64,000 nucleotides of DNA from Escherichia coli (lineage in GTDB: Bacteria > Pseudomonadota > Gammaproteobacteria > Enterobacterales > Enterobacteriaceae): assembly GCF_044324875.1 (NCBI RefSeq), contig NZ_CP172185.1. One strand, given 5' to 3'. Below the pieces are notes generated by a model, which did no database searches, was not told the origin of the DNA, and saw nothing but the letters and a program-made list of their open reading frames with translations. A program made the translations under genes and the position numbers. Numbering within the stretch: the stretch's first letter is position 1; every line of letters begins with the position of its first letter. This document shows, piece by piece, positions 15,108-58,252 of the stretch.

Positions 15108-15134
15108 AAAAAAAGCCCGTGAATATTCACGGGC
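15108..15134 (-). terminator. Intrinsic terminator downstream of dsbA
   Basis: gcccgtgaatattcacgggc hairpin with a U-run on the minus strand. Confidence 0.6.
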
Positions 15135-15154
15135 TTTATGTAATTTACATTGAA

Positions 15155-35315: not shown

Positions 35316-36092
35316 TTATTCTTTAGTTTTTTCGCTTTCTGCTTCAGCGTCGTTTTCTTCTTCCCGGTTTCGGCCCTTACCAACGTAAAAGCGTGAGAAG
35401 AAGACACCGATTTCAAACAGACAGTACATCGGGATCGCCAACAGCGTTTGCGAGAAGACATCCGGCGGCGTCAGCAGCATCCCGACAACAAATGCGCCAA
35501 CCAGCACATACGGACGTTTTTTGCGTAAGTCTTCTGGCGAGGTAATTCCCATCCAGCACAGCAGCACAATTGCCACCGGCACTTCAAAGGAGACACCAAA
35601 CGCCATAAACAGCGCCATAACGAAGCTTAAATAGCTGGCGATGTCGGTGGATACCTGTACCCCTTCCGGCGCGGTATTGGCAAGGAAGCCAAATGCCAGC
35701 GGAAAGACCACAAAGTAGGCGAACGCCATGCCGATATAAAACAACAGAGAGCTGGAAACCAGCAGCGGCACCACCAGGCGACGTTCATGCTTATACAGCG
35801 CTGGGGCGATAAACGCCCACACCTGATAGAGAATCACCGGCGCTGACAGAATCAGCGACACCATAAAGGTCAGCTTGATCGGCGTAAAGAACGGCGAGGC
35901 CACGTCGGTGGCGATCATCGTTGAACCTTGCGGCAACTGCTTGATCAATGGAGCGGATACCAGGTGATAGATGTCATTGGCGAAATAGACCAGACACAGG
36001 AATATCACGATCACCGCGATAATGCAGTTCAGCAGACGCTTACGCAGCTCAATCAGATGCGTGATAAGCGGTTGAGTATCTTCTACAGACAT
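35316..36092 (-). CDS. tatC: Twin-arginine translocase subunit TatC
   Basis: 258-aa polytopic membrane ORF. Confidence 0.96.
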
Positions 36093-36094
36093 GT

Positions 36095-36610
36095 TTACGG
36101 TTTATCACTCGACGAAGGGGAAGGTGCAGCGGTTTTCGGTTCAGCGTCCGCAGCAGGTTTTACCACCGGCTCTGGCGTGGTTTCTGGCTTCTGTTCCGGC
36201 GAACTGGCCTGCGTTTGTGCAGCAGCAGGCGTTACGCCTTCATGCGCAGCTTCATTGTCTTTCACCACCGGGTTGTGGATGGTGTGCGCTTCATCACTCG
36301 CCTTTTCAGGATCGTTTGCAACGTAGGAACGCTTCATCGACTCCGCGGCCTGGCGTAGTTCATCCATCGACGCTTTCAGTTCGGGCGTCAGGTTAGTGAG
36401 GCTCGCCTTTTCAACCTTTTTCAGACTGTCCTGAAACTCCTGGAGTTTTAACTCCTGGGTCAGTTCGTTCTGCACCGTTGTCGCCAGTGAACGCAACGCG
36501 CGAATCCAGCCCGCGACCGTTTTTACCGCCACAGGCAGTCGTTGCGGCCCCAGAACGACGAGGCCGATGATGAATACCAATAGCAGTTCGCTAAAACCGA
36601 TATCAAACAC
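36095..36610 (-). CDS. tatB: Twin-arginine translocase subunit TatB
   Basis: 171-aa [29 protein letters not shown]... Confidence 0.96.
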
Positions 36611-36613
36611 GGA

Positions 36614-36883
36614 TTACACCTGCTCTTTATCGTGGCGCTTCGCGTCTTCTGTTTTAGCCTGTTCCTGATTCGTATCCGCCTGCTTATCGGCGATAGTTTT
36701 CGCAGTAAAATCAGCATCCTGACTGGTTTTATCCTGCTTTGGTTCATCATCGCTCATTGCTTTTTTAAAGCCTTTGATCGACGCACCAAGATCGGAACCG
36801 ATGGAGCCGAGCTTTTTGGTGCCAAAAAGCAGTACAACGATGACGGCAATAATCAATAACTGCCAAATACTGATACCACCCAT
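36614..36883 (-). CDS. tatA: Twin-arginine translocase subunit TatA
   Basis: Start chosen at [27 protein letters not shown] (89 aa). Confidence 0.95.
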
Positions 36884-36961
36884 ACATGTTCCTCTGTGGT
36901 AGATGATGATTAAACAAGGCCGCATTATACGTTACACGGCCCGCCTTGAGCGATGAAAAAA

Positions 36962-39204
<2,243 letters not shown>

Positions 39205-39217
39205 TTCCGGTCTCCTG

Positions 39218-39973
39218 TCAGAACTTATAACCACGATGCAACGCCACAACCCCTGCCGTCAGATTGTAGTAGTCGACACTTTCGAATCCGGCATCCTGCA
39301 TCATGGCTTTCAGGGTATCCTGATCGGGATGCATACGGATGGATTCTGCCAGATAACGATAGCTGTCGGCGTCGTTCGCGACCAGTGAGCCAATACGCGG
39401 CAGCACATGGAAGGAGTATGCATCATAGGCTTTGCTCAGCGGCTCGATAATTGGCTTCGAGAACTCAAGCACCAGCAGGCGGCCGCCGGGTTTCAGCACG
39501 CGATACATTGAACGCAGTGCTTTATCTTTGTCGGTGACGTTACGCAGACCAAACGAAATGGTGATGCAATCAAAGGTGTTATCCGGGAACGGCAGCGCCT
39601 CAGCGTTCGCTTGAACATACTCAACGTTGCCAATCACACCGATATTACGCAGCTTCTCGCGTCCCATTTTGAGCATGGATTCATTGATATCAGCAAGGAC
39701 CACTTTGCCAGTTTCTCCGACCAGGCGGGAGAATTTCGCTGTCAGGTCGCCGGTGCCACCAGCCAGATCCAGCACGGTCTGCCCACGGCGTACGCCGCTG
39801 CAATCAATCGTGAATCGCTTCCACAAACGATGAATACCAAATGACATCAAATCATTCATGACATCGTATTTTGATGCCACGGAATGGAAAACGTGGGCGA
39901 CCATATCCGCTTTTTGTTCCTTCGCGACGGTCTGAAAACCAAAGTGCGTCGTTTCTTGTGACTTATCCACCAT
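39218..39973 (-). CDS. ubiE: Ubiquinone/menaquinone C-methyltransferase
   Basis: 251-aa ORF with SAM-binding motif [10 protein letters not shown]. Confidence 0.96.
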
Positions 39974-40067
39974 CTCAATGCCTGCTCATCAAAAAATTGT
40001 TCCAGAAGTGTAACAGATTGGGCGTCGATGCCCTAGATTTCTACCCGGCTTAACTACCCCCAATGGG

Positions 40068-41495
40068 CTAGCGCGACTGCTGATTATATTCATCATCGCG
40101 TTGATAAGCTTCATCATTCGGCTGCCCAGGAACCGACCGAAGTCGATACTCTTCATCCTGGCTCACCGCCTGTTCAGCCAAATCCGGGTTAATCTCGCGT
40201 TTAATTTCTACCCCTAAACCGCGAAACGCTTCTGCCTGCGCCAGCACATTTCCGCGACCTGAAGAGAGTTTTTTCATCGCCTGGCGATAGTTATCCTGCG
40301 CTTTGTCCAGACTTTGACCAATCGCGGACATATCATCAATAAACAGACGCATCTTGTCGTACAGCTTGCTGGCGCGATCGGCGATTTGCTGGGCGTTACG
40401 GCTTTGATGCTCATAACGCCAAAGGTTGGCGATAGTACGCAACGCCACCAGCAGCGTGGTGGGGCTAACCAGCATTATGTTGTTCTTTAATGCTTCGGTG
40501 ATCAGCTCCGGCTGGCGATCAAGCGCCAGTAAAAAAGCGGGTTCCACAGGGATAAACATCAGCACGTAATCCAGCGTTCGTAGCCCCGGCAGCTGTTGAT
40601 AGTCTTTGCGCCCAAGCAAGCGGATGTGATTACGTACCGAAGCAATATGCTCCTGCAATGCGCTTTCGCGTGTGTAGTCGTCTTCCGCGTTGAAGTAGCG
40701 TTCATAGGCGACCAGCGTCATTTTGGCATCGATCACCACATCTTTCCCCTGCGGTAGCCGCACGATGACATCCGGCTGCATCCGCGAGCGAGCGTCATTT
40801 TCGATGCTGACCTGGGTTTCGTATTCATACCCTTCACGCAGTCCGGAAGCCTCCAGCACCCGCGTCAGTACCACTTCGCCCCAGTTCCCCTGGGTTTTGT
40901 TATCGCCTTTCAGCGCGCGGGTCAGGTTGATCGCTTCCTGGGCCATTTGCGCGTTGAGCTGCTGGAGATTGCGAATTTCGTGGGTCAGGGTATGGCGTTC
41001 TTGTGCTTCTTTACCAAAGCTGTCCTGAACCTGACGGCGGAAACCGTCCAGTTGTTCACGTAGCGGCGACAACAGGCTGTTCAGACTCTGACGGTTTTGC
41101 TCATCAACCCGGCGATTGCTGTGCTCAAAAATACGGTTGGCGAGGTTTTCAAACTGCTCACTGAGGCGCTGCTCGCTGTTAATCATCTGGCGAATTTTAT
41201 CGTCAGCATGTTGCTGTGCGGCTTCCATCCGCGTGGTTACTTCACGCAGATCGGCCTCCAGAGAGGTGTTAATACTTTGCAGGCTGCGCACTTCGTTATT
41301 GAGTAACTCGCACTCAGCGCGCCAGTGCTCGCTTTGGGTAATTTGTTGTTTTGCCGCGCTTAACTCCGCGACCATCTCTTCACGTTCAGCTAATTGCTCG
41401 GCTTTTTGCTGCGCATGTTGATAACTGGCAAACAGCCAGCCAATTGCCACACCCACCAACGCAATAACTGCGTAAACCATGATTGAGAAATCCAC
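40068..41495 (-). CDS. rmuC: DNA recombination protein RmuC
   Basis: 475-aa ORF with N-terminal TM segment and long coiled-coil region. Confidence 0.93.
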   Translation of the reverse strand: MDFSIMVYAVIALVGVAIGWLFASYQHAQQKAEQLAEREEMVAELSAAKQQITQSEHWRAECELLNNEVRSLQSINTSLEADLREVTTRMEAAQQHADDKIRQMINSEQRLSEQFENLANRIFEHSNRRVDEQNRQSLNSLLSPLREQLDGFRRQVQDSFGKEAQERHTLTHEIRNLQQLNAQMAQEAINLTRALKGDNKTQGNWGEVVLTRVLEASGLREGYEYETQVSIENDARSRMQPDVIVRLPQGKDVVIDAKMTLVAYERYFNAEDDYTRESALQEHIASVRNHIRLLGRKDYQQLPGLRTLDYVLMFIPVEPAFLLALDRQPELITEALKNNIMLVSPTTLLVALRTIANLWRYEHQSRNAQQIADRASKLYDKMRLFIDDMSAIGQSLDKAQDNYRQAMKKLSSGRGNVLAQAEAFRGLGVEIKREINPDLAEQAVSQDEEYRLRSVPGQPNDEAYQRDDEYNQQSR

Positions 41496-41586
41496 AACGC
41501 CTCCTGACGCAACAACTTACCCGCACAAAATAGAATTGTGCTGTACAAACGTCCAGTTGGAAAGGCATTTCCTGCGAGGCGCTACG

Positions 41587-41618
41587 CAAAAATACAAAAG
41601 GCCGAACGCGTCGGCCTT
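41587..41618 (-). terminator. Intrinsic terminator downstream of udp
   Basis: aggccgacgcgttcggcct hairpin followed by a TTTTGTATTTTT run on the minus strand. Confidence 0.6.
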
Positions 41619-41635
41619 CAGACAGGAGAAGAGGA

Positions 41636-42397
41636 TTACAGCAGACGACGCGCCGCTTCCACCACGATTTTCACCGCTTGGCTTTCAGTTTGTTTCATCG
41701 TCTCAGCATTCGGGATCTCTTGCTGGGTGCGGTTAACGATAACGCCCGCCACCATACCCGCACGCAGGCCCTGACTTGCACACATGGTCAGCAGGGTTGC
41801 AGATTCCATTTCATAGTTCATTACGCCCATCGCCTGCCACTCTTCCATAGAACCTTTAAAGTGACGAACTACGCGACCAGAGTAAGTATCGTAACGTTCC
41901 TGGCCTGGGTAGAAGGTATCAGAAGAAGCCGTCACGCCAACGTGAGTCGTCGCGCCAATGGATTTCGCCGCTTCAACCAGCGCAGTCGTACATTCGAAAT
42001 CAGCGACAGCCGGGAATTCCAGCGGTGCGAAGTGCAAGCTCGCGCCATCCAGACGAACAGACGCCGTGGTAACCAGAACATCGCCAACATTAATATGCGG
42101 CTGAATAGCGCCCGTTGTACCGATACGCAGGAAGGTGCGAATGCCCAGCTGTGCCAGCTCTTCAACAGCAATAGAGGTAGACGGGCCGCCGATACCGGTA
42201 GAGCAGACGATAACAGGTTTACCATCCAGCTCTGCACGCCAGGTGGCGAATTCGCGGTGAGATGCCAGCTTAACCGGCTTATCCATCAGCGCGGCGATCT
42301 TTTCCACACGATCCGGGTCGCCAGGGACGATGGCAAGCGTAGCCCCTTGTAAATCGTTTTTAGTGAGGCCGAGATGAAAAACATCAGACTTGGACAT
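41636..42397 (-). CDS. udp: Uridine phosphorylase
   Basis: Start chosen at [31 protein letters not shown] (253 aa). Confidence 0.96.
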
Positions 42398-42522
42398 ATA
42401 CAACTCCTCTGTGAATCGGTTTAGTCAGAAGAAGCAAAAAGACACTTTACCGAAGGGTTTAACATTTTTTCGTGACACTCATCACCATGACGCAAATGCG
42501 TTGCATAAATTTACCCAGCAAA

Positions 42523-42540
42523 AGTGATGCAAATCACATA
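42523..42540 (-). promoter_or_regulatory. Candidate CRP site in the udp promoter
   Basis: Minus-strand aTGTGAtttgcaTCACt fits TGTGA-N6-TCACA; udp is known to be CRP/CytR controlled. Confidence 0.45.
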
Positions 42541-42658
42541 AATCACTCTTCATTCTGCAGGACTGCATAAAAGATGAGCCGATTCAGGCAATGTGATTTG
42601 TTGCATGCTGACTATAGTTAACATTGCGCAACATTTTTATAAGGGTACGGAGAATACC

Positions 42659-43471
42659 ATGGCAACAACACAACAATCTGGATTTGCACCTGCTGCATCG
42701 CCTCTCGCTTCGACCATCGTTCAGACCCCGGACGACGCGATTGCGGCGGGCTTCACCTCTATCCCCTCACAAGGGGATAACATGCCTGCTTACCATGCCA
42801 GACCAAAGCAGAGCGATGGCCCACTGCCAGTGGTCATTGTAGTGCAGGAAATTTTTGGCGTGCATGAACATATCCGCGACATTTGTCGCCGTCTGGCGCT
42901 GGAGGGGTATCTGGCTATCGCACCTGAACTTTACTTCCGCGAAGGCGATCCGAATGATTTTGCCGATATCCCCACGTTACTTAGCGGTCTGGTAGCAAAA
43001 GTGCCTGACTCGCAGGTGCTGGCCGATCTCGATCATGTCGCCAGTTGGGCTTCCCGCAACGGCGGCGATGTACATCGTTTAATGATCACCGGATTCTGCT
43101 GGGGGGGACGTATCACCTGGCTGTATGCTGCGCATAACCCGCAACTGAAAGCGGCGGTGGCATGGTACGGCAAACTGACAGGCGATAAGTCGCTGAATTC
43201 ACCGAAACAACCTGTTGATATCGCAACCGATCTTAACGCGCCGGTTCTCGGCTTATATGGTGGTCAGGATAACAGCATTCCGCAGGAGAGCGTTGAAACC
43301 ATGCGCCAGGCGCTGCGGGCTGCTAATGCGAAAGCAGAGATTATCGTCTACCCGGATGCCGGGCATGCATTCAACGCCGATTATCGCCCGAGCTATCATG
43401 CCGAATCTGCGAAAGATGGCTGGCAGCGTATGCTGGAGTGGTTTAAGCAGTATGGTGGGAAGCGGAATTAG
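42659..43471 (+). CDS. ysgA: Putative dienelactone hydrolase family protein
   Basis: Start chosen at MATTQQSGFAPAAS (271 aa); alpha/beta hydrolase motifs (GFCWGG). Confidence 0.9.
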   Translation: MATTQQSGFAPAASPLASTIVQTPDDAIAAGFTSIPSQGDNMPAYHARPKQSDGPLPVVIVVQEIFGVHEHIRDICRRLALEGYLAIAPELYFREGDPNDFADIPTLLSGLVAKVPDSQVLADLDHVASWASRNGGDVHRLMITGFCWGGRITWLYAAHNPQLKAAVAWYGKLTGDKSLNSPKQPVDIATDLNAPVLGLYGGQDNSIPQESVETMRQALRAANAKAEIIVYPDAGHAFNADYRPSYHAESAKDGWQRMLEWFKQYGGKRN

Positions 43472-43862
43472 TTTCCTCTTAGTCTATATTTGAGATGGTG
43501 AGTGAACGAGTGCGTTTTGCTGCCATCTCTGTCCCCCAAAAAATAATCAGTATGAATTGATTGGAGAGCACGACTCCGCTATTTGACCTTAAGAAAGTCG
43601 GCAAGTAATAGTCATAAGTGAGTCTCTTCACTGGCAGACACCTTAGAGATTTACCATCAACTCCCATTCTCAAACAAACATTAATTATTATCAACACATT
43701 CACATTAATTATAAATTATCTCAGACCTTCCTGATAAAAAGATATTAAAGTGAAACATTTTGTTTTTCACATTTTAGTTCATCCCTTTTAGGCGTAAATA
43801 AAGGTAAAAAATAACAATACTATTTTTCTTTCACAAAAGAATTAACAAAAGGTTTTTCAAGG

Positions 43863-44996
43863 ATGAGTGATATTATTTACCTGAACATAACCGGAGAACA
43901 ACAAGGATGTATTTCCTCTCGTTGTGGAACGAGCGCATCAATAGGTAATCGCTGGCAGATTGGCCATGAAGATGAAATCTTCGCGTTCTCGCTCTCTAAT
44001 AGTATTACGAATACAGGCAAAGGGTCACAATTGCATGGCCTTAGTTTCTGTAAATTGATTGACAAAAGCTCCCCGTTACTTATTAACGCTATTAACAATA
44101 ACGAGCAGTTGTTCATGGAGTTTGACTTCTATCGGATCAATAGATTTGGTCGATGGGAGAAATATTACAACATTCAACTTCGCGGCGCGCTCTTATCAGC
44201 AATCAATCACCTGTTTACTGAGAACAATCTGGATACAGAAACCATCACTGTCAGTTATGAATATATACTCTCCAGGCATCTGATTGCTAATACTGAATTT
44301 AGTTATTTGGCATTTCCCGATAACTACAACCGTCTGTTTATACCACGGCCAAAAACTAAAGATGATAATGGCCTCAAAACACTCAATAGTAAAGCGGTTG
44401 GCAGACTGCTTGCTGCTGGCGGCATATACAATGGGAATATCGAAGGATTCAGGGAAACAGCAAACAAGTTGGGAGGAGATGCACCTGCTGGTTACGATCA
44501 AGTTATGGATAACAAAGGGTTACTCATCGCTGGTGCTTCAATAGTTGCTGGAGTTGTTCTGGGAAGAATGAGATTCCCTGATTTGGAATCACTTGAGCAT
44601 TTCGGAGCCAGAGGAGCAGTATCAGGAAGACCATTTAATCCCGACCTTGCCGGTGGTCCAATTGAAAACCTGACGATAGATGGCGTAACAATCAACAGGG
44701 AAGGTATCGCTATTGTTGAAAAGCATATCTCCAGATTTGATCATGATCCAGCTAATGATGTAATGATTTCAAGGCTAAAGAAAATAGCAAATAAAGAATT
44801 GCTTCCTGAAAAATACGATCTGAACTACTATACTCATGAATGTCGCGAGTATCAGCGTTATTGTAATTTAGGATGGGAAACAGGTGAACCGAAAGGTTTA
44901 GATGGATATGAATTATGGAATAATGTACATACTGCAACTCTAGAAGACTTTAAAATTAAAGATACTGACTTATTTCATCCGGATGCAAAAAAATGA
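43863..44996 (+). CDS. Hcp-domain protein with C-terminal extension (candidate Hcp-fused type VI secretion effector toxin)
   Basis: 377-aa ORF in AT-rich DNA. N-terminal ~155 aa follow the Hcp family pattern (YLNITGE...LHGLSFCKLIDKSSPLL...YYNIQL), alignable by eye with E. coli Hcp. The C-terminal ~220 aa have no family I can assign. Family call is by recall, not by search. Confidence 0.7.
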   Translation: MSDIIYLNITGEQQGCISSRCGTSASIGNRWQIGHEDEIFAFSLSNSITNTGKGSQLHGLSFCKLIDKSSPLLINAINNNEQLFMEFDFYRINRFGRWEKYYNIQLRGALLSAINHLFTENNLDTETITVSYEYILSRHLIANTEFSYLAFPDNYNRLFIPRPKTKDDNGLKTLNSKAVGRLLAAGGIYNGNIEGFRETANKLGGDAPAGYDQVMDNKGLLIAGASIVAGVVLGRMRFPDLESLEHFGARGAVSGRPFNPDLAGGPIENLTIDGVTINREGIAIVEKHISRFDHDPANDVMISRLKKIANKELLPEKYDLNYYTHECREYQRYCNLGWETGEPKGLDGYELWNNVHTATLEDFKIKDTDLFHPDAKK

Positions 44997-45250
44997 CGAT
45001 TACGATAGTTGAATTTAACGTGCTGAAAGTTATGGCTGAGAAAGATATTGACTGGAGCTGGATGGTGCTGGATCGTACTTTAGCTATACGAAATATTCCA
45101 GGATTTGGCAACGTAGCGAATATCGTAACAAAGCTGGTTAATCATGGGTTGGTTGATATCGTAAATGGTGAGGGCAACTCTAGACCACGCTACAGAGTTT
45201 CTCAATATGGATTGAATCTTATCAAAGAACAACAAGACAACCTCTTCTGA
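44993..45250 (+). CDS. Small hypothetical protein, candidate cognate immunity protein
   Basis: 85-aa ORF whose ATG overlaps the upstream stop (ATGA at 44993-44996); paralogue of the next ORF; conserved LDRTL-IR-IPGFGNV-NIV-KL--GLV block. Confidence 0.6.
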   Translation: MTITIVEFNVLKVMAEKDIDWSWMVLDRTLAIRNIPGFGNVANIVTKLVNHGLVDIVNGEGNSRPRYRVSQYGLNLIKEQQDNLF

Positions 45251-45309
45251 TCCAGCCATTACAGGAGCATGATTTACATTGTGATCTTTCAATAAGATAC
45301 TCATCAATT

Positions 45310-45570
45310 TTGGTACAGAATATCGTGATCACTAAAAATGAACTTAACGTGCTGAACGTTATGACTGAGAAAGATATAAACTGGAACTGGATGAATCTCG
45401 ATCGCACACTATCCATAAGGCAAATTCCAGGATTCGGGAATGTTGTTAACATTGTTAACAAATTAGCTAACGAAGGTTTGGTTATTATTGAGGATAGCGG
45501 GAATAAGTCTATGCCTCACTACCACGTTAGTGAAAAGGGATACAATCTCGTGCAACGTGAGAATAAATAA
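45310..45570 (+). CDS. Small hypothetical protein, paralogue of the preceding gene (candidate second or orphan immunity protein)
   Basis: 86-aa ORF with roughly 60% identity by eye to the 44993-45250 product, plus clear nucleotide similarity; track start is TTG at 45310, and an in-frame GTG at 45325 is an alternative start. Confidence 0.5.
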   Translation: MVQNIVITKNELNVLNVMTEKDINWNWMNLDRTLSIRQIPGFGNVVNIVNKLANEGLVIIEDSGNKSMPHYHVSEKGYNLVQRENK

Positions 45571-45676
45571 CGTAGCGTTGATTACTGAACGGAATCACTC
45601 AAAACTGTGTTTTGCGAAAAAAACGATTCGGTTATTTCTGCTCCTGAAGATCAGCTTCAATCTGGCACTCATGCAA

Positions 45677-45702
45677 AATGGCTTCCAGTGCTGGAAGCCA
45701 TT
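45677..45702. repeat. 26-bp near-perfect palindrome between the insertion and the metE 3' end
   Basis: aatggcttccag tg ctggaagccatt; possible bidirectional terminator. Confidence 0.5.
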
Positions 45703-45738
45703 ATCGTACTGCAATTTACAGTGACTCGTTAATATTCG

Positions 45739-48000
45739 TCATCCCCGACGCAAATTCTGCGCCGCCTGCACCATGTTCGCCAGTGCCGCGCGGGTTTCTG
45801 GCCAGCCGCGCGTTTTCAGGCCACAGTCCGGGTTGACCCACAGACGCTCTGCCGGAATGCGTTTTGCCGCTTTCTTCAGCAAGGCTTCAATCCATTCCAC
45901 GCTCGGTACGTTTGGCGAGTGAATGTCATAGACGCCAGGACCGATTTCATTTGGATAATCAAACTCTTCAAACGACTCCAGCAACTCCATGTCGGAACGC
46001 GAGGTTTCGATGGTGATGACGTCTGCGTCCAGCGCCGCAATCGAATCCATGATGTCGTTGAACTCGCAGTAACACATGTGAGTGTGGATTTGTGTGTCAT
46101 CTTTCGCCACGGCGGCGTTGATACGGAAAGCCTCCACGCCCCACTGGAGATAGGCATCCCAGTCGCCGCGACGCAGCGGTAAACCTTCGCGCAGTGCCGG
46201 TTCATCAATCTGGATGATGCCAATTCCAGCGGCTTCCAGGTCCGCCACTTCATCACGCAGCGCCAGCGCAATTTGTTTGGCGATGGTTTCACGGCTGACA
46301 TCTTCACGCGGGAACGACCAGCAGAGAATGGTCACCGGGCCGGTCAGCATCCCTTTCACCGGTTTGTCAGTCAGCGATTGCGCATACTTCGCCCACTCAA
46401 TGGTAATCGGTGCCGGGCGGCTAACGTCACCAATGACAATCGGCGGCTTCACGCAGCGGGAACCGTAGCTCTGTACCCAACCGTTTTGCGTAAAGACAAA
46501 ACCGTCGAGATGCTCGCCAAAGTATTCCACCATGTCATTACGCTCGGCCTCGCCATGCACCAGCACATCCAGACCTAAACGTTCCTGCTCAACAATGGCC
46601 TGCTTGATATGTTCCGCAATGCCCGTGCGGTAGTTGTTGGCGTCGAGATTACCCTTTTTGAAATCCAGACGCAGGGTACGAATTTCCGTGGTTTGCGGGA
46701 AGGAACCAATCGTGGTGGTCGGCCACGCGGGCAGTTTAAAACGCGCACGCTGGGCTTCAGCACGCACTTCATAGACATTCGCACGCTGACTGTCCTGAGC
46801 GGTGATCGCCGCCAGACGCTTTTCTACTGCCGGATTATGTACGCGGGTTGAGTGACGACGCGCCTGAATCGGAGCGCTCCACTCTGCCAGAGCAGCCGTG
46901 TCACCACTGTTCAGCGCATCGCGCAGCAGTGCCAGTTCATGACATTTTTGCAGGGCGAAGGCAAACCAGCTTTTCACTTCTGCATCAAGACGCGTTTCCA
47001 CGCTCAGGTCGATGGGGCTGTGCAGCAGTGAGCAGGAAGATGCCACCCACAAATCGCGTTTGCCGACAATGTCCTTAATTTGCGCATACTTCTCGGTAAG
47101 ATCGGCGCGCCAGACGTTACGACCATTGATCAGACCCGCAGACAGCAGCCAGTCAGAAGGCAGACGCTTGTGCAGTTCAGCAACGTCATCTTTACCATGT
47201 ACAAGATCGACATGCAGACCCTGAACAGGCAGCGCAGTAATCGTGTCGAGATTTGGCGTTACGCCTTCAAAATAGGTGGTCAGCAGCAGTTTCACCTGTC
47301 CCTGGAGCGCGTCGTAAGCGGGTTTGTATGCGTCCAGCCACGCCTGCGGTAGTTCCAGTACCAGCGCTGGTTCGTCGATCTGTACCCACTCAATACCGCG
47401 TTTTGCCAGTTCTGCCAGCACTTGCTGATAAATCGGAAGAATGTCGTTCAGCAGGCTCAGGCGATCAAACTGTTCACCTTTCACTTTACCCAGCCACAGG
47501 TAGGTAACCGGCCCCAGCAGCACAGGTTTCACCTTGTGGCCCAGCGCCAGCGCCTCGTCCACTTCCTCCAGCAGCTGCGTCCAGGTCAGTTTGAACTGTT
47601 GGCCTTTAACGAACTCCGGCACCATGTAGTGATAGTTGGTGTTAAACCATTTGGTCATTTCCGCTGCCGCCGCAGGTTCACCAGTCGGCGCACGTCCACG
47701 ACCAATACGGAACAGGGTGTCGATATCTACCGAACCATCTTTGTTCTGATGACGTGGCGGAACATTACCCAGCAGCAGACTGGTGGTCAGTACATGATCG
47801 TACCAGGCAAAATCGCCCACCGGCAGCAGGTCGATACCCGCCTGCTTTTGTTGATCCCAGTGACGGGCACGTAATTCACGCCCAACCGCCAGCAGTTCTT
47901 CACGCGTGGAGTTCCCCGCCCAATAACTTTCTTGCGCTTTTTTCAGCTCGCGACGCAGGCCAACGCGAGGGAAACCGAGGGTGTGATTCAATATTGTCAT
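45739..48000 (-). CDS. metE: Cobalamin-independent methionine synthase
   Basis: 753-aa [32 protein letters not shown]... Confidence 0.97.
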
Positions 48001-48235
48001 TTTTCTTCCTCTAATTATATGTAAATCCTATGGATTTTGAATTTAGGGAAGGCGGCAAGTTTATTCATCCCCGGGAGCTTACTGAAGTAAGTGACCGGGG
48101 TGAAGAAACGCAGCCAACGCACCATAAATTTAAAAGACGAAGGATTTTAGCCGTCCAGATGTTTACACATCCATAATTGGCGGTTACTGTATATTCCTCA
48201 AGCGCAAATTATTCATGCCGAAGTGAAGGACTTTC
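48001..48235. promoter_or_regulatory. Divergent metE/metR control region (expected MetR and MetJ sites)
   Basis: Intergenic region between divergent metE and metR; met-box-like agacg/gtccagatgtttacacatcc sequences; sites not mapped precisely. Confidence 0.4.
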
Positions 48236-49189
48236 ATGATCGAAGTAAAACATCTGAAAACGCTACAAGCGTTGCGGAACTGCGGCTCGCTCGCAGCCGC
48301 TGCGGCGACGTTGCATCAGACGCAATCCGCCCTGTCTCACCAGTTTAGCGATCTGGAACAACGCCTTGGCTTCCGGCTATTTGTGCGTAAGAGCCAGCCG
48401 CTTCGCTTTACACCGCAGGGAGAAATCCTGTTGCAACTGGCAAATCAGGTGCTGCCGCAAATCAGCCAGGCACTGCAAGCCTGCAATGAACCGCAGCAGA
48501 CGCGTCTGCGCATTGCCATCGAGTGCCATAGCTGTATTCAGTGGCTGACGCCCGCGTTAGAAAATTTCCATAAGAACTGGCCGCAGGTCGAGATGGACTT
48601 TAAATCGGGCGTGACGTTTGACCCGCAGCCTGCGTTGCAACAGGGCGAGCTGGATCTGGTGATGACGTCAGATATTCTGCCGCGCAGTGGCCTGCATTAT
48701 TCGCCGATGTTCGATTATGAAGTGCGTCTGGTGTTGGCACCTGACCATCCGCTGGCGGCGAAAACGCGTATTACACCGGAAGATCTCGCCAGCGAGACGC
48801 TGTTGATTTATCCGGTGCAGCGTAGTCGACTGGATGTCTGGCGGCATTTTCTTCAGCCAGCAGGCGTCAGCCCGTCACTGAAAAGCGTCGATAACACCTT
48901 ATTGTTGATTCAGATGGTTGCCGCGCGGATGGGTATTGCCGCACTACCGCATTGGGTGGTGGAGAGTTTTGAACGCCAGGGTCTGGTGGTGACCAAAACC
49001 CTGGGCGAAGGCTTGTGGAGCCGACTGTACGCCGCCGTGCGCGATGGCGAGCAGCGTCAGCCGATTACAGAAGCGTTTATTCGCTCAGCGCGCAATCACG
49101 CCTGCGATCATCTGCCGTTTGTGAAGAGCGCGGAGCGACCCACTTACGATGCACCCACAGTGAGGCCAGGATCACCAGCGCGCCTGTAA
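48236..49189 (+). CDS. metR: LysR-family transcriptional activator MetR
   Basis: 317-aa ORF with N-terminal HTH ([24 protein letters not shown]). Confidence 0.96.
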
Positions 49190-49976
49190 TAAACGTTGGC
49201 CAGTGCGGCTGTTGGTGCCAGATAGCCAGGTTTACCAGCAGCCCTGCCGGAACGTGCATATTATTCATAATGCCCAGCGTTCCGGCGTCCACCTGCGTCG
49301 CGCCGTAGTTCCACATAAAGTAGCCAATCCCGGAAGCCACCACGCCAAGAAACACCAGAATGCCCCATTGCAACGTGGTTTGCGGCATTTTCTGCGCATT
49401 TCCCAGCAAGAACCATGCAATCACCGCCACCAGGAACGCGCCAAGATAGAACCACGCAAAGGCGTTATGCTGCGGCATCGGGCGAGTTTCCATCAGACGT
49501 TTGTAACCCACCATGCCGATGGCAAAAGTGATATTGGAGAGCTGCACCAGCAGCAGGCCAGTCCAGAAGTGGTCGGTGACCTGATCATAGCGAATAATCC
49601 CGGCACCAATCACCGCCAACAAGGCGCTAAAAGCATAGCCCCAGCGCAGACGGCGCTGACTCATGATGTCATAAATCAACGTGATGTAGAGCGGCGTCAG
49701 TACGGTGAACAGCAGCAGCTCGGAGACCGTCAGGTAGAGATAGGCGCGGAAACTCAGCATATACATCACGCCGAGCTGCATCGCGCCTACCAGCATATAC
49801 AGGCCGACCGTTTTCAGGCTATTGCCACGGGTACGCAGAAACGGCAGAAAAACCAGTGCCGCCAGGCCAACGCGCACCAGCACTGCAAAATAGCTATCGA
49901 CGTGCCCCGCAAGGTACTCGCCATAAAAGCTAAAGGAGAAGGCCCACAGAATCGTGGTGATGATAAGTAGCGCCAC
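49077..49976 (-). CDS. yigM: EamA/DMT-family transporter YigM (biotin transporter BioP)
   Basis: 299-aa polytopic membrane ORF; its 3' end overlaps the metR 3' end. Confidence 0.9.
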
Positions 49977-50051
49977 AATGGAAAACTCTTTGATTAACGA
50001 GTATCCATTGTAGCGAAGTATCAGGTTGACAACTGACCAAATAAAGAACGA

Positions 50052-50852
50052 TTACGATAAATAGAGCTTACGCAGATAATGCGGCACTGCGTCCTCGGCG
50101 TTAGTACCAATCACTTCCAGTTCCGGATGCAGATCTTTCAGACGCTGGTGCGCACTGCCCATAATGCAGCCTTTCCCCGCCATCGACAGCATTTCGGCGT
50201 CGTTCATCCCGTCACCAAACGCAATACAATCTTGCAGGCTGTAGCCCAGTTTCTTCGCCACCGCTTCCAGCGCATGACCTTTCGACACGCCGCCCGCCAT
50301 CACTTCCAGACAGGTTAAGGTAGAGAAACTGACGTTGACGCGATCGCCCCAGCGAGCGTTGATCGCCTGCTCCAGCGGCAGAAGTTGTTCATGGGAATCG
50401 CAGGTGAAGAACACTTTGCTGACGCCTTCCGGCTCCAGTAATCCCGGCTCATACAGCGCATATTTGAACACCGCTTCTTTAAAAAAGCGCATCTCTTCCG
50501 GGCGATGGCGATTCATAAACCATTCGTCGTCGCGATAAACGTTAGTAATGATGTCCGGATTGTCGTTGACTACGCCAAACAGATCGCTGGCAATGTCGCG
50601 ATCCAGGTTATGAGCAAAAATCAGATTGCCATCCAGATCGTGAACGCGCGCGCCATTGGAGGTAATCATGTAAGACTTAATCTCCAGATTATCGCGAATT
50701 TGCCCCACATCAACGTGGTGACGACCGGTCGCAAACACAAAGTTGATGCCGCGCGCGGTGAGCAGCTTCAGAGTTTCTTTGGCGTAAGGGGATAACGTAT
50801 GGTCGGGAGAAAGTAACGTGCCATCTAAATCAGACGCAACAACCTGGTACAT
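50052..50852 (-). CDS. yigL: HAD-family sugar phosphatase YigL
   Basis: Start chosen at MYQVVASDLDGTLL (HAD motif I DxDGT), 266 aa; the track ORF extends upstream into pldB. Confidence 0.92.
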   Translation of the reverse strand: MYQVVASDLDGTLLSPDHTLSPYAKETLKLLTARGINFVFATGRHHVDVGQIRDNLEIKSYMITSNGARVHDLDGNLIFAHNLDRDIASDLFGVVNDNPDIITNVYRDDEWFMNRHRPEEMRFFKEAVFKYALYEPGLLEPEGVSKVFFTCDSHEQLLPLEQAINARWGDRVNVSFSTLTCLEVMAGGVSKGHALEAVAKKLGYSLQDCIAFGDGMNDAEMLSMAGKGCIMGSAHQRLKDLHPELEVIGTNAEDAVPHYLRKLYLS

Positions 50853-50859
50853 AAGAAAT

Positions 50860-51882
50860 TTAAACCTCTGTAGAGCGGTTTCCGCTGGGTGAGTTATGCC
50901 TGTTGAAAAAATCAACGATGGCGTGGAGCGCGACTGAGCGCATTGCGTCCTTTTCAAAAAGGATCTCATGGTACGCACCTTTAATTACCAACGGCCGTCC
51001 TCCTTCGACAGGATGGCCCGCGGCAGTGCGGAGTTCACAAAAACGGTCGTGCATGCGGTTATCCACCACGCGTTCCTCTTCAGCTTGTAAGAGAAGCGTT
51101 GGCGTGGTGTCATCACCCGCACCGGCTAACACCTGTTCGCCAGCCAGAATACTTTCGCGTACCCAATGGTAGGTCGGCCCACCGACGCGAATCGTTGGGT
51201 CATCAGCATAGAAGCGTAAGTTACGTCGATATCGCTGTCTGCTGTGGGTCAGTACGTTGATAGCAAACGGCAACGCGCGCCAGCGCCCGGTGCCTATTGC
51301 ATAGCCATCACGGAAACGTGGATGCGCTTCGGCCCAGTTGAGGATCTGCCGTGCCATAAATGACGGCATACGAATCACGATCCCAAACATTGGCGCAGTT
51401 AGCGCAATGGCGTCACATACACCTGGATGGCGTTGCAGAAATAATGTGGAGATCGCACCGCCCATTGAATGTGCCAGTATATAGCGTTTACGCCACGGAC
51501 CGGGCTGAACCTCCTGTTGCCAGAATGCCGCCAGATCATCAACATAATCATTAAAGCGATTAACATGCCCGAGATGCGGATCGGCTAACAGGCGACCGGA
51601 ACGTCCCTGCCCGCGATGGTCGATGATTAAGACATCAAACCCCAAATGGAACAGGTCATAGGCCAGTTCCGCATATTTTACGTAGCTCTCAATACGCCCC
51701 GGGCAGATGACTACCACCCGGTCATGGTGCTGTGCGCGAAAACGGACAAAGCGCACCGGAATGTCATCCACACCAGTAAATTCTGCTTCATCACGCTGAC
51801 GCCAGAAATCAGTCAGCGGTCCCATGGTAAAAGCAGCAAACGCGTTTTCTCTTGTTTCCCAGTCTTTTTGCTGCTGAAACAT
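50860..51882 (-). CDS. pldB: Lysophospholipase L2
   Basis: 340-aa ORF with alpha/beta hydrolase motif AHSMGG. Confidence 0.95.
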   Translation of the reverse strand: MFQQQKDWETRENAFAAFTMGPLTDFWRQRDEAEFTGVDDIPVRFVRFRAQHHDRVVVICPGRIESYVKYAELAYDLFHLGFDVLIIDHRGQGRSGRLLADPHLGHVNRFNDYVDDLAAFWQQEVQPGPWRKRYILAHSMGGAISTLFLQRHPGVCDAIALTAPMFGIVIRMPSFMARQILNWAEAHPRFRDGYAIGTGRWRALPFAINVLTHSRQRYRRNLRFYADDPTIRVGGPTYHWVRESILAGEQVLAGAGDDTTPTLLLQAEEERVVDNRMHDRFCELRTAAGHPVEGGRPLVIKGAYHEILFEKDAMRSVALHAIVDFFNRHNSPSGNRSTEV

Positions 51883-51992
51883 CGGGTAATCTGCCTCTTA
51901 AACCACGTAAAATCGTTTTTTTAAGCGTGCCTGACACAACGCTGCGACAGTAGCGTATTGTGGCACAAAAATAGACACACCGGGAGTTCATC

Positions 51993-52613
51993 ATGACCTT
52001 AGAATGGTGGTTTGCCTACCTGCTGACATCGATCATTTTAAGCCTGTCGCCAGGCTCTGGCGCAATCAACACCATGACCACCTCGCTCAACCACGGTTAT
52101 CGCGGCGCGGTGGCGTCTATTGCTGGGCTTCAGACCGGACTGGCGATTCATATTGTGCTGGTTGGCGTGGGGTTGGGGACGCTATTTTCCCGCTCAGTGA
52201 TTGCGTTTGAAGTGTTGAAGTGGGCAGGCGCAGCTTACTTGATTTGGCTGGGAATACAGCAATGGCGCGCCGCTGGTGCAATTGACCTTAAATCGCTAGC
52301 CTCTACTCAATCGCGCCGACATTTGTTCCAGCGCGCAGTGTTTGTGAATCTTACCAATCCCAAAAGTATTGTGTTTCTGGCAGCGCTATTTCCGCAATTC
52401 ATCATGCCGCAGCAACCACAACTGATGCAGTATATCGTGCTCGGCGTCACCACTATTGTGGTCGATATTATTGTGATGATCGGTTACGCCACCCTTGCTC
52501 AACGGATTGCTCTATGGATTAAAGGACCAAAGCAGATGAAGGCGCTGAATAAGATTTTCGGCTCGTTGTTTATGCTGGTGGGAGCGCTGTTAGCATCGGC
52601 GAGGCATGCGTGA
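51993..52613 (+). CDS. rhtB: LysE-family homoserine/homoserine lactone exporter
   Basis: 206-aa membrane [30 protein letters not shown]... Confidence 0.93.
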
Positions 52614-52621
52614 AAAATAAT

Positions 52622-52651
52622 GTCGGATGCGGCGTAAACGCCTTATCCGAC
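52622..52651. repeat. REP element
   Basis: gtcggatgcggcgtaaacgccttatccgac. Confidence 0.7.
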
Positions 52652-52674
52652 TTACTCTGATGACGCGTCTGGCA

Positions 52675-53295
52675 TCAACGCGAAATAATCAAATGAATGC
52701 CAAATCCGGCAAATAACGCCCCGGCAAAACCATCAATCCACTTCGCCAGACGCTGATAACCACGGCGCATTTGCGGCAAAGCAAACAGGCTGGCAACGAC
52801 GGTAAACCACGCCAGTGTTTCGATAATAATCAACGCGAAAATGCCCCAGCGCTCAGTGGTGCCGACGTTATCGCCGACAAACAGCGAGAATACCGAACCA
52901 AAGTAGATAATCGCTTTCGGATTGGCGAGATTGGTCAGTAAGCCTTTCAGGAAACTGCGCCCGCTTTTTGCCAGCTCAACCTGTGGTGCAGGCGCAGAAA
53001 CCGCCTCTTTTTTCAGTGCACCGCGTAGCATCTGGTAACCCATCCAGCAGAGATACAGGCCTCCGCCCACCATAATCAGCGTATGCAGCCAGGCCATTTT
53101 TTCGATAATCAAATGCAGGCCAAGCAACGCAATCCCAGCCCAAACCATTACGCCGCAGGTAATGCCCAGCACGCCCATCATCGCTTCTTTACGGGAACGA
53201 CTGACAGCGGTCTGAGAGACAAAAAAGAAATCGGGACCGGGGCTCATAAGCGCCACAATGTGCACCATGGCGACGGTGAGGAATAACATCAACAT
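52675..53295 (-). CDS. rhtC: LysE-family threonine exporter
   Basis: 206-aa membrane ORF MLMLFLTVAMVHIVALMSPGPDFFFV... Confidence 0.93.
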   Translation of the reverse strand: MLMLFLTVAMVHIVALMSPGPDFFFVSQTAVSRSRKEAMMGVLGITCGVMVWAGIALLGLHLIIEKMAWLHTLIMVGGGLYLCWMGYQMLRGALKKEAVSAPAPQVELAKSGRSFLKGLLTNLANPKAIIYFGSVFSLFVGDNVGTTERWGIFALIIIETLAWFTVVASLFALPQMRRGYQRLAKWIDGFAGALFAGFGIHLIISR

Positions 53296-53358
53296 ACATT
53301 AGACTCGCGGGGGAAACGTTTACGGAGTCTTCATCCTGGCACTTTTTTATCCTGCTGA

Positions 53359-55188
53359 CTACTCTTCGTCATCGCCATCAACATGCGCACGAATCAGCGC
53401 CATGAACGGTTTGCCAAAGCGTTCCAGCTTGCGCATCCCAACGCCGTTAACGCTGAGCATTTCGCTGGCAGTGATCGGCATCTGTTCAGCCATCTCAATC
53501 AAGGTCGCGTCGTTAAACACCACGTACGGCGGGACATTGCTTTCATCGGCAATCGATTTACGCAGTTTGCGTAATTTGGCGAACAGTTTGCGATCGTAGT
53601 TGCCGCCGAAGGATTTCTGCATCGCTTTCGGTTTGAGCGCCACGATACGCGGCACGGCAAGTTGCAAAGAGGATTCGCTGCGCAGCACCGGACGCGCAGC
53701 CTCTGTCAGTTGTAGGGCAGAATGCTGGGCAATATTTTGCGTCACCAGGCCGAGGTGAATCAGCTGGCGGATCACGCTCACCCAATGTTCATGGCTTTTA
53801 TCACGGCCCATGCCATAGACTTTCAGTTTGTCATGACCATAGTCGCGGATACGCTGGTTATTAGCGCCACGAATCACTTCCACCACATAACCCATCCCAA
53901 ACCGCTGATTCACACGACCAATGGTGGAAAGGGCAATCTGAGCATCGGTTGAACCATCGTATTGTTTCGGCGGATCGAGGCAGATATCGCAGTTCCCGCA
54001 CGGCTCCTGCCGCCCTTCGCCAAAGTAGTTCAGCAGCACCAGACGACGGCAAGTTTGCGCTTCGGCAAACGCGCCCATCGCATTGAGTTTATGACGTTCG
54101 ATATCCTGTAACTGCCCCTGCGGTTTCTCTTCCAGACAACGACGCAGCCACGCCATATCCGCCGGATCGTAAAACAGCATCGCTTCCGCGGGCAGGCCAT
54201 CACGCCCGGCGCGTCCGGTTTCCTGATAATAGGATTCAATGTTGCGCGGAATATCAAAATGCACCACGAAGCGAACGTTTGGTTTATTGATGCCCATGCC
54301 GAACGCCACCGTCGCCACCACAATTTGCAGGTCATCGCGCTGGAATTTCTCCTGCACATCAGCGCGAACATTATTTTCCAGCCCGGCATGATAGGCCGCC
54401 GCGCTAATTCCCTTGCTTTGCAGGCGCGCAGCGGTGTCTTCTACTTTCGCACGACTATTACAGTAAATAATCCCCGACTTACCGCGTTGTTCCTGTACAT
54501 AACGCATCAACTGATCGAGCGGTTTGAATTTCTCCATCAGCATGTAGCGAATATTCGGACGGTCAAAACTGCTGATTTGAATCAGCGGATCGTTCAGCCC
54601 CAGCAGGCGCACGATATCCTGGCGCGTGGTGTCATCGGCTGTGGCAGTCAGCGCCATAAACGGCAGCGTCGGAAAACGCTGACGCAGCTGACCGAGGGCA
54701 GCGTATTCCGGGCGGAAATCGTGACCCCATTGGGAGATACAGTGCGCTTCATCAACGGCTAATAACACCGGATTCCAGTGCGCCAGATGCTCAAGAAAGT
54801 TATCCAGCATCAGACGTTCCGGCGCGATATAAAGCAGGCGGATTTGCCCGGTGCGACAGCCTGTCATAACTTCAAGTTGCTGCTCGCGGGTTTGCGTCGA
54901 GTTAAGGCACGCCGCCGCCACGCCGTTGGCTTGCAGTTGATCCACCTGATCTTTCATCAACGAAATCAGCGGTGAAACAACCACGGTAAGGCCGTTTAGC
55001 AATAAGGCAGGGATTTGATAGCAAAGGGATTTTCCGCCACCAGTGGGCATGACGACGAGGCAATCGCGGCCGGAAAGCACAGTGTCGATAATTTCTTCCT
55101 GGCCGGGGCGAAACTGTTGGTAGCCAAAGGTTTCTTGTAAAACCTGTTTAGCTCCGGACTCCAGATTCAACACTTCCGCCTGCGCCAC
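53359..55188 (-). CDS. recQ: ATP-dependent DNA helicase RecQ
   Basis: ORF with helicase motifs ([15 protein letters not shown]), zinc-binding and HRDC regions; start taken at the GTG giving MAQAEVLN. Confidence 0.96.
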
Positions 55189-55204
55189 ATTCACCCCGAT
55201 TGCC

Positions 55205-55237
55205 TGAAATAAAAACAGGCGCTATTTTCAGCGCCTG
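55205..55237 (-). terminator. Intrinsic terminator downstream of pldA
   Basis: caggcgc...gcgcctg hairpin followed by a TTTTTATTT run on the minus strand. Confidence 0.6.
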
Positions 55238-55320
55238 CGCGAGAAACTGCAATGCTTTTAGTCTCTGAGAGGGTAATCCTGGATACTGGATTCCAGATTT
55301 GCCAACCACTCAACCGTTCA

Positions 55321-56190
55321 TCAAAACAAGTCGTTTAGCATAACCCCTACACCAACGCGGGTCTGGTTGAAGTTATAGTCGATGAGCGATTCGCCGTAAC
55401 CGCTGTAAACCTGAGTATAAAGGCGCACATGTTTGGTGATCGGGTAACTTAAGCCTAACTCCGCGCCGCCGTAGCCCGTGTTCCAGTTGTACTGTCCTTT
55501 CGCACTCAACACCGCATCACCGAGGTGATAGCCAATTTTAAGCTGGTAGTAACCCATATATTTGGTGATATCCGGGTTATCGTCAGTATTACCCACCACA
55601 TACCACGGCTTCACTTCTACCAGCCAGTTACCGTTTTCTGCCATCAGGCGAGTATAAAGGCGGTTCCAGCTGCGGGAGGTCGGGTCTGAACGCCCGTTAG
55701 AGTCGTGGTTATACCCCATCTCCACATCGCGCAGCGTCCAACCTGCAAAACGGTAATCGGTGGCAAAACCGAGGAACAATTGCGGTTCGTAGTTGGTTTC
55801 ACGAAACGGTGAAGACTCTTCGCTATTGGACAGTTGCCACCAGGATTTTTGCGTATAAGACGCACCCAATACCGAGTTCGGGCCTAAAATCCCACGCCAC
55901 AGCGGAAATGCCAGGCTCAACTGAAACTTTACTTCATCCTTACGCGCATTTTCCGCCCAGTCGTAACTGGCAATCGCTTCTTTATTCAGATCGCTGGTTT
56001 GGGTGTAGATGAGGTAGTTGGTGTCATAAGGATAGAGCGTGAACGGATTGTCATGCTCCTGCAGCATATTGGCGATAATACTGCCACGCACCGCTGGCGC
56101 GTCATGCACCTCTTTCACCGTTGCCTCTTGTGCATATACTGCCATAGGCAACATAAACACCGGCAACAACCAGCCCTGCAGAGTCCGCAT
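55321..56190 (-). CDS. pldA: Outer membrane phospholipase A
   Basis: 289-aa ORF with signal peptide; recognised as OMPLA. Confidence 0.96.
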   Translation of the reverse strand: MRTLQGWLLPVFMLPMAVYAQEATVKEVHDAPAVRGSIIANMLQEHDNPFTLYPYDTNYLIYTQTSDLNKEAIASYDWAENARKDEVKFQLSLAFPLWRGILGPNSVLGASYTQKSWWQLSNSEESSPFRETNYEPQLFLGFATDYRFAGWTLRDVEMGYNHDSNGRSDPTSRSWNRLYTRLMAENGNWLVEVKPWYVVGNTDDNPDITKYMGYYQLKIGYHLGDAVLSAKGQYNWNTGYGGAELGLSYPITKHVRLYTQVYSGYGESLIDYNFNQTRVGVGVMLNDLF

Positions 56191-57764: not shown

Positions 57765-57858
57765 AAAATAAATATATTCTGAAAAAATATGCCGACTCTT
57801 GCATGAGAGTGGGCATATTGCCATGCTGACAGGAGACTCACACAAGGATGTAAAATTT

Positions 57859-58239: not shown

Positions 58240-58252
58240 TTATGGAGTATTT

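Follow-up and report, generated by a model that had tools for sequence, protein, structure and literature searches.

An AT-rich, two-part spacer with a conserved 20-nt element precedes an acquired orphan hcp-toxin gene between ysgA and metE of Escherichia coli and probably holds its silenced promoter

In this Escherichia coli chromosome, the 391 bp between ysgA and a downstream hcp-toxin fusion gene are AT-rich, acquired and built of two parts, and the part next to the toxin gene carries a 20-nt element that is conserved, at a nearly fixed distance from the start codon, in related loci. We think it reasonably probable that this spacer is the non-coding front of an acquired hcp-toxin/immunity cassette, and that its proximal part is the cassette's own promoter region, a weak one of the sigma-70 type that H-NS would occupy and keep silent.

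The window, by which we mean the whole 64,000-nt stretch of chromosome that was analysed, has the gene order udp, ysgA, islet, metE, metR. RefSeq annotation was taken from an essentially identical locus (99.9% over a 2.6-kb query), and the features needed to follow the argument are these:

42659 to 43471, plus strand: ysgA, the core gene on the upstream side (dienelactone hydrolase family), placed from the RefSeq annotation of the near-identical locus and a comparison of its 3' end with K-12.
43463 to 45742, plus strand: acquired islet of ~2.3 kb, 38% GC (38.4%), delimited by comparison of its junctions with K-12, where it replaces the ysgA-metE spacer and hairpin.
43472 to 43862, plus strand: untranslated spacer of 391 bp, 33% GC, from the ysgA stop codon to the hcp-toxin ATG.
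43863 to 44996, plus strand: hcp-toxin fusion gene (annotated tssD, Hcp-ET type), 377 aa, from RefSeq and from matches in Pfam, NCBIfam and to Hcp in PDB.
44993 to 45250, plus strand: 85-aa ORF overlapping the toxin stop codon, presumed from its position to be the immunity gene.
45325 to 45570, plus strand: 81-aa paralogue of the 85-aa ORF (60% identity), probably an orphan immunity gene.

The TAG that ends ysgA occupies 43469-43471, and the 377-aa Hcp fusion ORF opens with an ATG at 43863. The product begins with an Hcp domain (aa 1-147), recognised by Pfam T6SS_HCP (PF05638, aa 6-135, 3e-14), by TIGR03344 (aa 1-147, 2.8e-36) and by Hcp matches in PDB, and continues into a C-terminal extension of ~230 aa that matches no toxin family in Pfam or NCBIfam. 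In Pantoea, Lonsdalea and Enterobacter the same extension is joined to different N-terminal regions, as would fit a polymorphic toxin. The 85-aa ORF has no match in Pfam or NCBIfam either. An Hcp domain with a C-terminal extension is what defines an orphan Hcp-ET cassette, and the 377-aa gene with its small downstream ORFs appears to have the layout of such a toxin/immunity cassette, toxicity and neutralisation both being putative.

The acquired nature of this DNA is seen most directly by comparison with K-12 MG1655, where the ysgA-metE spacer is only 39 bp, as short as the original prediction had supposed, and consists of a GC-rich hairpin (gaccgggtggtattaccacccggt). This hairpin is a bidirectional terminator, and the insertion of the cassette removed it: relative to K-12, ysgA has altered final codons, metE has an altered stop codon, and the native hairpin is gone. 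The islet is absent from K-12 and was found in 841 of the 5426 complete E. coli genomes, so the spacer does lie in acquired DNA, as had been claimed. Neither direct nor inverted repeats, as marks of a mobile element, flank the islet ends. The window, O145:H28 and CFT073 have the same right junction, between islet and metE, but differ at the left one; the shared junction points to one ancestral insertion beside metE. On that side the islet probably brought a replacement terminator for metE:

45677 to 45702, minus strand: perfect 12-bp hairpin, followed by UUUUG on the metE strand.

In CFT073 the hcp-toxin gene at ysgA-metE is a pseudogene, and a metabolic island of ~14 kb separates ysgA from the cassette, so that the immediate upstream neighbour of the cassette is hxlB, which is divergent.

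The spacer was originally described as an AT-rich untranslated region of about 390 bp ahead of the Hcp fusion gene, with long AT-rich tracts before the ORF, and this description holds in all its parts. Its GC content is 33.0%, against 51.2% for the whole window, a value as low as this being reached by just 0.7% of 391-bp windows. The two AT-rich strings that had been quoted, cattaattataaattatctcag and aaaggtaaaaaataacaatactattttt, are present at 43703-43724 and 43800-43827, within a few bases of where they had been placed. GATC (Dam) sites are missing from the spacer, and RefSeq annotates no feature within it. Its sole ORF, of 74 aa on the minus strand (43479-43703), was rejected as a coding sequence: it has a premature in-frame stop in the O145 allele, its changes are mostly non-synonymous, and it has no Pfam match. 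The spacer combines marked AT-richness relative to its host with a presence that varies among strains, two of the features expected of an H-NS-silenced xenogeneic promoter region.

The spacer should not be treated as a single unit, however, since its two parts differ in both composition and distribution:

43472 to 43671, no strand assigned: distal segment, 200 bp, 42% GC, confined to one lineage; B2 strains, Citrobacter, Salmonella and plasmids have no homologue of it.
43672 to 43862, plus strand: proximal segment, 191 bp, 23.6% GC, passed on together with the hcp-toxin gene and predicted to hold the promoter and to be bound by H-NS.

A sensitive search of complete E. coli genomes with the spacer alone recovered it at full length in 385 genomes, whereas in another 461, the B2 strains CFT073 and UTI89 among them, no more than positions 202-360 of it are retained (72% identity). 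The distal 200 bp have no counterpart downstream of ysgA in CFT073, were not found in plasmids, do not occur in any locus examined from another genus, and are present as a single copy per E. coli genome. The proximal segment has the lowest GC content of all 191-bp stretches in the 64-kb window, and its 10 A/T tracts of at least 4 nt are the maximum for the window (background mean 1.9). Because the distal part has no counterpart elsewhere and the proximal part is kept beside different neighbours, the distal 200 bp are lineage-specific junction filler, and the proximal ~190 bp the part that is inherited with the toxin gene. The proposal that the spacer is regulatory therefore stands for the proximal ~190 bp, which are conserved and extremely AT-rich, and falls for the distal 200 bp, at 42% GC and confined to one lineage.

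To compare the regions upstream of hcp-toxin genes, loci were collected from a genome scan, from a protein search with contig look-ups, and from the second hcp-toxin islet of CFT073. The ten closest loci have Hcp domains at least 74% identical, except for CFT073 c0132 (67%); they lie at ysgA-metE and yhhY-ggt in E. coli, Citrobacter and Salmonella, and at aroP-pdhR in the case of c0132. In nine of the ten, AAGTGAAACATTTT is present with 0-2 mismatches at 112-120 nt before the start codon, and a match of equal quality arose in only 0-2 of 500 shuffles. Around it, the alignments mark out three features:

43746 to 43765, plus strand: conserved 20-nt element TAAAGTGAAACATTTTGTTT, identical at 17-19 of 20 positions in eight diverged loci.
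43722 to 43740, plus strand: partly conserved upstream patch CAGAccTTCCTGAtAAAAA (CAGA..TTCCT.A.AAAA), a candidate UP-like element or regulator contact, seen in alignments including that of ten sequences.
43792 to 43802, plus strand: second conserved patch GCGTAAATAAA, directly past the proposed transcription start, likewise seen in alignments including that of ten sequences.

Whereas the 20-mer is conserved at 85-95%, the rest of the 200 nt upstream is only 46-64% identical, and third codon positions only 44-73% (ranges that exclude O145, nearly identical throughout, and the frameshifted gene of Citrobacter FP75). An identity of 17-19 of 20 positions amid neighbouring sequence and third codon positions that are near saturation indicates that the 20-mer is under purifying selection. 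It is unique within the 64-kb window. The copy upstream of c0132 is degenerate and contains an indel (CTAAGTGAAAACGTT, also given as AAGTGAAAAC), at -114. The element is missing from six more distant hcp-toxin loci (57-68% identity, at six further chromosomal sites), whose upstream regions are still AT-rich at 29-35% GC, and the T6SS main cluster of CFT073 gave no meaningful match either, with three matches of three mismatches against 4.5 expected by chance. We did not find the element described in the literature searched. The suggestion that the spacer might hold the islet's own regulatory sites is upheld by this element and its patches, which keep a fixed distance from the start codon despite differing upstream neighbours.

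What, then, might the element be? A sigma-70 weight-matrix (PWM) scan was run on all ten upstream regions, and the only candidate conserved in position was a (G/A/T)TGAAA hexamer at -110 to -116, separated by 16-18 nt from a -10-like hexamer at -88 to -93. This pair ranks among the top five candidates in seven of the ten sequences, with low scores of 3.4-7.1 bits. The promoter-like sites of the window locus that deserve mention are the following:

43750 to 43755, plus strand: proposed -35 hexamer GTGAAA, within the 20-mer; TTGAAA in one Salmonella locus and ATGAAA in two Citrobacter loci.
43773 to 43778, plus strand: proposed -10 hexamer TTTAGT after a 17-nt spacer, a prediction from the PWM scan.
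43583 to 43612, plus strand: distal sigma-70-like site TTGACC-18-AATAGT, the best-scoring in this strain and lineage-specific.
43708 to 43737, minus strand: sigma-70-like site TTATCA-18-TATAAT, 10 of 12 matches, not conserved in the alignments and probably a spurious promoter.

The pair GTGAAA-17-TTTAGT would place the transcription start near 43785 and give a 5' untranslated region (UTR) of ~78 nt. Both hexamers are weak (4/6 and 4/6 consensus matches, the -10 lacking the A at position 2), which tells against our preferred reading, as does the higher score of TTGACC-18-AATAGT in this strain, although CFT073 and Citrobacter have no such site upstream of their genes. Low promoter scores are expected if the promoter is silent or depends on an activator. 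The region contains 15 promoter-like sites against 7.0 ± 2.8 expected, more than chance would give, and sites of this kind are characteristic of the spurious promoters that AT-rich DNA contains and H-NS keeps down.

A 20-mer far longer than a -35 hexamer may mainly be the site of a transcription factor, with the core promoter elsewhere in the proximal segment. We regard this as possible but clearly the less probable reading; the regulator might be of the LacI family or Cra-like, as the TGAAAC half-site would suggest, or the site might contain an OmpR-like half-site. Conservation over ~20 nt with patches on both sides does exceed what a hexamer needs. The Cra consensus RSTGAAWCSNTHHW (quoted in PMC5829826) is matched with 1-2 mismatches at the same conserved position in eight of the ten loci. 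Yet the window site has two mismatches, and in shuffled 300-nt sequences a match with at most two mismatches turned up in 60% (at most one, in 7.7%); the 'S' positions of the consensus differ between loci, there is no conserved second half-site, and the motif was not found in the T6SS main cluster. The Cra match, then, is consistent in position and no better than chance, and is perhaps best kept as a lead rather than a result. On the OmpR side, TGAAACATTT may resemble the C1 OmpR half-site of ompC, TGAAACATCT, a putative likeness that would speak for the operator reading. Consensus scans for Fur, CRP, FNR, IHF, Fis, sigma-54 and the high-affinity H-NS motif returned only weak, non-conserved matches; an FNR-like site with one mismatch, TTAATTATTATCAA, was set aside as it is not conserved in CFT073 or Citrobacter. 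A more specific version strikes us as rather doubtful: here the 20-mer and its patches form an operator through which a regulator or counter-silencer, itself uncharacterised, activates in concert one clade of orphan hcp-toxin cassettes, placed at different chromosomal sites in E. coli, Citrobacter and Salmonella. If it were true, the unit that spreads would be a 'promoter-operator-toxin-immunity' cassette, and not a bare gene pair.

Against our reading of the 20-mer as the site of the -35 hexamer, it must also be said that the element is absent from the six distant hcp-toxin loci and from the CFT073 T6SS main cluster, and that no canonical terminator follows ysgA, so that read-through may contribute here. 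Could read-through from ysgA be the only source of toxin transcripts, with the spacer holding no functional promoter and its AT-richness reflecting nothing other than donor composition? The two genes are co-directional, the native terminator has been deleted, the hairpin that remains lacks a U tract, and all candidate promoters are weak. The same proximal region, though, follows the divergent hxlB in CFT073, where read-through is impossible and an own promoter would be required; in the sister islet, c0132 too comes after a divergently transcribed gene, aroP, and the 20-mer is under purifying selection. We therefore consider expression by read-through alone quite improbable.

The hairpin just mentioned had been described as weak and as possibly insulating ysgA from read-through:

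43492 to 43529, plus strand: imperfect but stable hairpin, 21 nt past the ysgA stop codon, -17.3 kcal/mol, z = -4.8.

Its arms are gagatgg (43492-43498) and ccatctc (43523-43529), and with that energy, which none of 200 shuffles equalled, 'weak' understates it. The insulating role fares less well. The hairpin has the GC-rich stem-loop of a terminator, but UGUCCCCCAAAAAA follows it in place of a U-rich tract, and it was not picked up by the terminator scan. That it terminates or insulates ysgA transcription is accordingly an unlikely option in our view: its stability and its place just past the stop codon speak for it, while the imperfect stem, the silence of the scan and the UGUCCCCCAAAAAAUAAUC that follows where a U tract would be needed speak against it. 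Stabilisation of the ysgA transcript at its 3' end is another role that the hairpin might have. The islet thus removed the native terminator and supplied no canonical one on the ysgA side.

The same hairpin, the length of the spacer and the 74-aa minus-strand ORF might together hint that a small RNA, a cis-regulatory leader or a small protein is encoded there. An Rfam scan of 42000-48500 gave no match in the spacer at E ≤1, and the proximal 123 nt show no excess of RNA structure, folding no better than shuffles (z = +0.48); on these two results a leader RNA is unlikely. The hairpin region, moreover, is restricted to one E. coli lineage, and the ORF has the defects listed above, namely the premature stop in O145, the mostly non-synonymous changes and the lack of a Pfam match. 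We give this alternative very little credence.

Returning to the promoter reading, H-NS binding at the spacer is likely, as judged from composition, from chromatin immunoprecipitation sequencing (ChIP-seq) at a sister islet and from a calibration against GC content. Hustmyer et al. 2022 (PMC9765446) mapped H-NS, StpA, RNA polymerase (RNAP) and sigma-70 in CFT073 by ChIP-seq. In the part of their data drawn on here, hcp c0132 has an H-NS IP/input of 20.6 and the immunity-type genes downstream of it 18.6-51.9, while RNAP is near background across c0132-c0137 and the class given is 'H-NS bound, Class III'. Among the 125 genes of their table that served for calibration, nine of the ten with a GC content of at most 42% are H-NS-bound, versus 6 of the 115 above it; the lone unbound gene at or below 42% is a 45-nt ORF, and the correlation of GC content with H-NS signal is negative (Spearman rho -0.63, same 125 genes). 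With islet genes at 38-40% GC and a spacer at 33%, coating of the islet by H-NS would be expected from this calibration.

Putting these pieces in order, we propose the following. An acquired 'orphan' hcp-toxin/immunity cassette of ~2.3 kb would have replaced the 39-bp ysgA-metE spacer together with its bidirectional terminator. The distal 200 bp would be junction filler, with the hairpin that lacks a U tract and a single promoter-like site peculiar to this strain; the proximal 191 bp would be the cassette's own control region, inherited along with the gene. The 20-mer may hold the -35 (GTGAAA) of a weak sigma-70 promoter with TTTAGT as its -10, a start near 43785 and a 5' UTR of ~78 nt that is predicted to be unstructured; a regulator site probably overlaps or adjoins the 20-mer. 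H-NS/StpA would coat the AT-rich segment, and probably the whole islet, under laboratory conditions, and the weak promoter would then be held off until some counter-silencing signal relieves it.

Orphan Hcp-toxin cassettes serve as weapons between bacteria, most of them seemingly silent under laboratory conditions. Recognising the proximal ~190 bp as the inherited control region, with the 20-mer at about -115, gives a precise target for experiment. The locus is otherwise a textbook case, an AT-rich acquired islet in E. coli with the ordinary arrangement for foreign DNA. Its pieces are all of known kinds (an orphan Hcp-ET cassette, the GR29 hotspot, and an AT-rich acquired control region of the H-NS-silenced type), and what the analysis adds to these is the two-part anatomy of the spacer and the 20-nt element at its fixed position.

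Among these known systems, the orphan Hcp-ET modules of Enterobacteriaceae (PMC6730261) share with the window locus the N-terminal Hcp tube domain with a C-terminal extension, the small immunity-type ORFs downstream, duplicated, and a location between core genes, outside the T6SS cluster. Whereas ET1-ET4 carry HNH, DUF2235, pyocin S3 or colicin DNase domains, the extension in the window has no such match. The upstream control region is not described in the reviews of these modules that were consulted (PMC6730261).

The site itself belongs to a known genomic region, 'GR29' (metE..ysgA), of B2 extraintestinal pathogenic E. coli (ExPEC; PMC12928451). It is the same chromosomal hotspot, with the same hcp-toxin cassette abutting metE, but in the B2 strains the metabolic island of ~14 kb lies between ysgA and the cassette and the distal 200 bp of the window are absent.

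The closest parallel for control is the CFT073 aroP-pdhR islet (c0132-c0137, Hcp-ET3-4 type), which likewise has an orphan hcp-toxin gene (Hcp domain 67% identical to that of the window), a long AT-rich upstream spacer (527 bp, 30% GC), immunity repeats downstream and the degenerate AAGTGAAAAC at -114. It differs in its chromosomal site and its toxin, and the 20-mer is only partly conserved. H-NS occupancy was measured at c0132-c0137 in the portion of PMC9765446 cited above, while at the window locus it is an expectation. Similarly, the orphan hcp2B-vgrG2 operon of avian pathogenic E. coli is repressed by H-NS (Ma et al. 2018, PMC5874247), and the Salmonella SPI-6 T6SS is silenced by it (Brunet et al. 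2015, cited in PMC5874247). Both are AT-rich acquired T6SS accessory loci whose silence in rich medium is relieved by mutation of hns; their silencing rests on expression data, whereas that of the window locus is suggested by its composition and by analogy with them.

The Hcp fusion (43863–44996) has a C-terminal extension, amino acids 140–377, that is also found joined to other N-terminal regions, with 41–82% identity, in Lonsdalea, Pantoea, Enterobacter, Kluyvera, Kosakonia, Mixta and Rahnella (comparison loci L010–L013 and L018–L024), and the identity is 67–82% in every such locus except Rahnella. Such attachment to varied N-terminal regions fits a polymorphic toxin domain without an assigned family. 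Two small ORFs follow the toxin gene:

44993–45250, ORF of 85 aa
45325–45570, ORF of 81 aa, paralogous to the first (60% identical)

Neither small ORF matched any family in Pfam or NCBIfam. The presence of two paralogs behind a toxin gene suggests a pair consisting of one cognate and one orphan immunity gene.

The hcp-toxin copy of CFT073 (tssD, NC_004431.1 4520357–4521490; L003/L033) carries the annotation of a pseudogene, interrupted by an internal stop, while both immunity-type ORFs are intact. The Hcp domain in the window (43863–44312) is 98% identical to that of CFT073 (L003) as a protein, but the third positions of conserved codons are only 73% identical; these are old, diverged alleles whose protein is under strong purifying selection. 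In O145:H28 (L004), the set of immunity genes between the toxin gene and metE differs, and REP-like sequence (gccggatgcggcgtgaacgccttgtccagcc) lies between the same two genes, at about 4870–4930 of that locus.

Many complete genomes match the islet (compared as window 43300–45900) at 99.9% identity, whereas the best of them reach only 98.4–98.9% over the surrounding 20 kb (36000–56000); islet and flanks may differ in their recombination histories. Some strains have IS insertions within or close to the spacer between ysgA and the toxin gene: 21AH126 carries an IS3-family element approximately 30 bp past the ysgA stop codon (L005, 1681–2909), and the islet of strain EC21Z-144 (H1) contains IS1. 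Very low-GC 191-bp stretches comparable to the proximal spacer, the part nearest the toxin gene, occur in the window at about 12200, 14800–15200 and 57800–58400.

On its metE side, the islet supplies a hairpin downstream of the metE stop (45739):

45677–45702, minus strand, perfect 12-bp hairpin, then UUUUG on the metE strand

This hairpin probably serves metE as a replacement terminator, the native bidirectional hairpin of the ysgA–metE spacer having been deleted. The metE–metR intergenic region (48026–48144) gave a weak Rfam match to the Vibrio antisense RNA V_AS5. It scores 28.7 bits, where the gathering score is 96 (E = 0.006), and is probably due to chance.

Related hcp-toxin cassettes are found at at least eight further chromosomal sites, namely yhhY–ggt (the yhhY/yhhX–ggt loci L027–L032, L008 and L009), aroP–pdhR, tamB/ytfP, yncE, kdpF/ybfA, marR–RND, pta-like and proP (L037–L042 are also among the loci), and each of these cassettes is preceded by an AT-rich upstream spacer of 200–530 bp.
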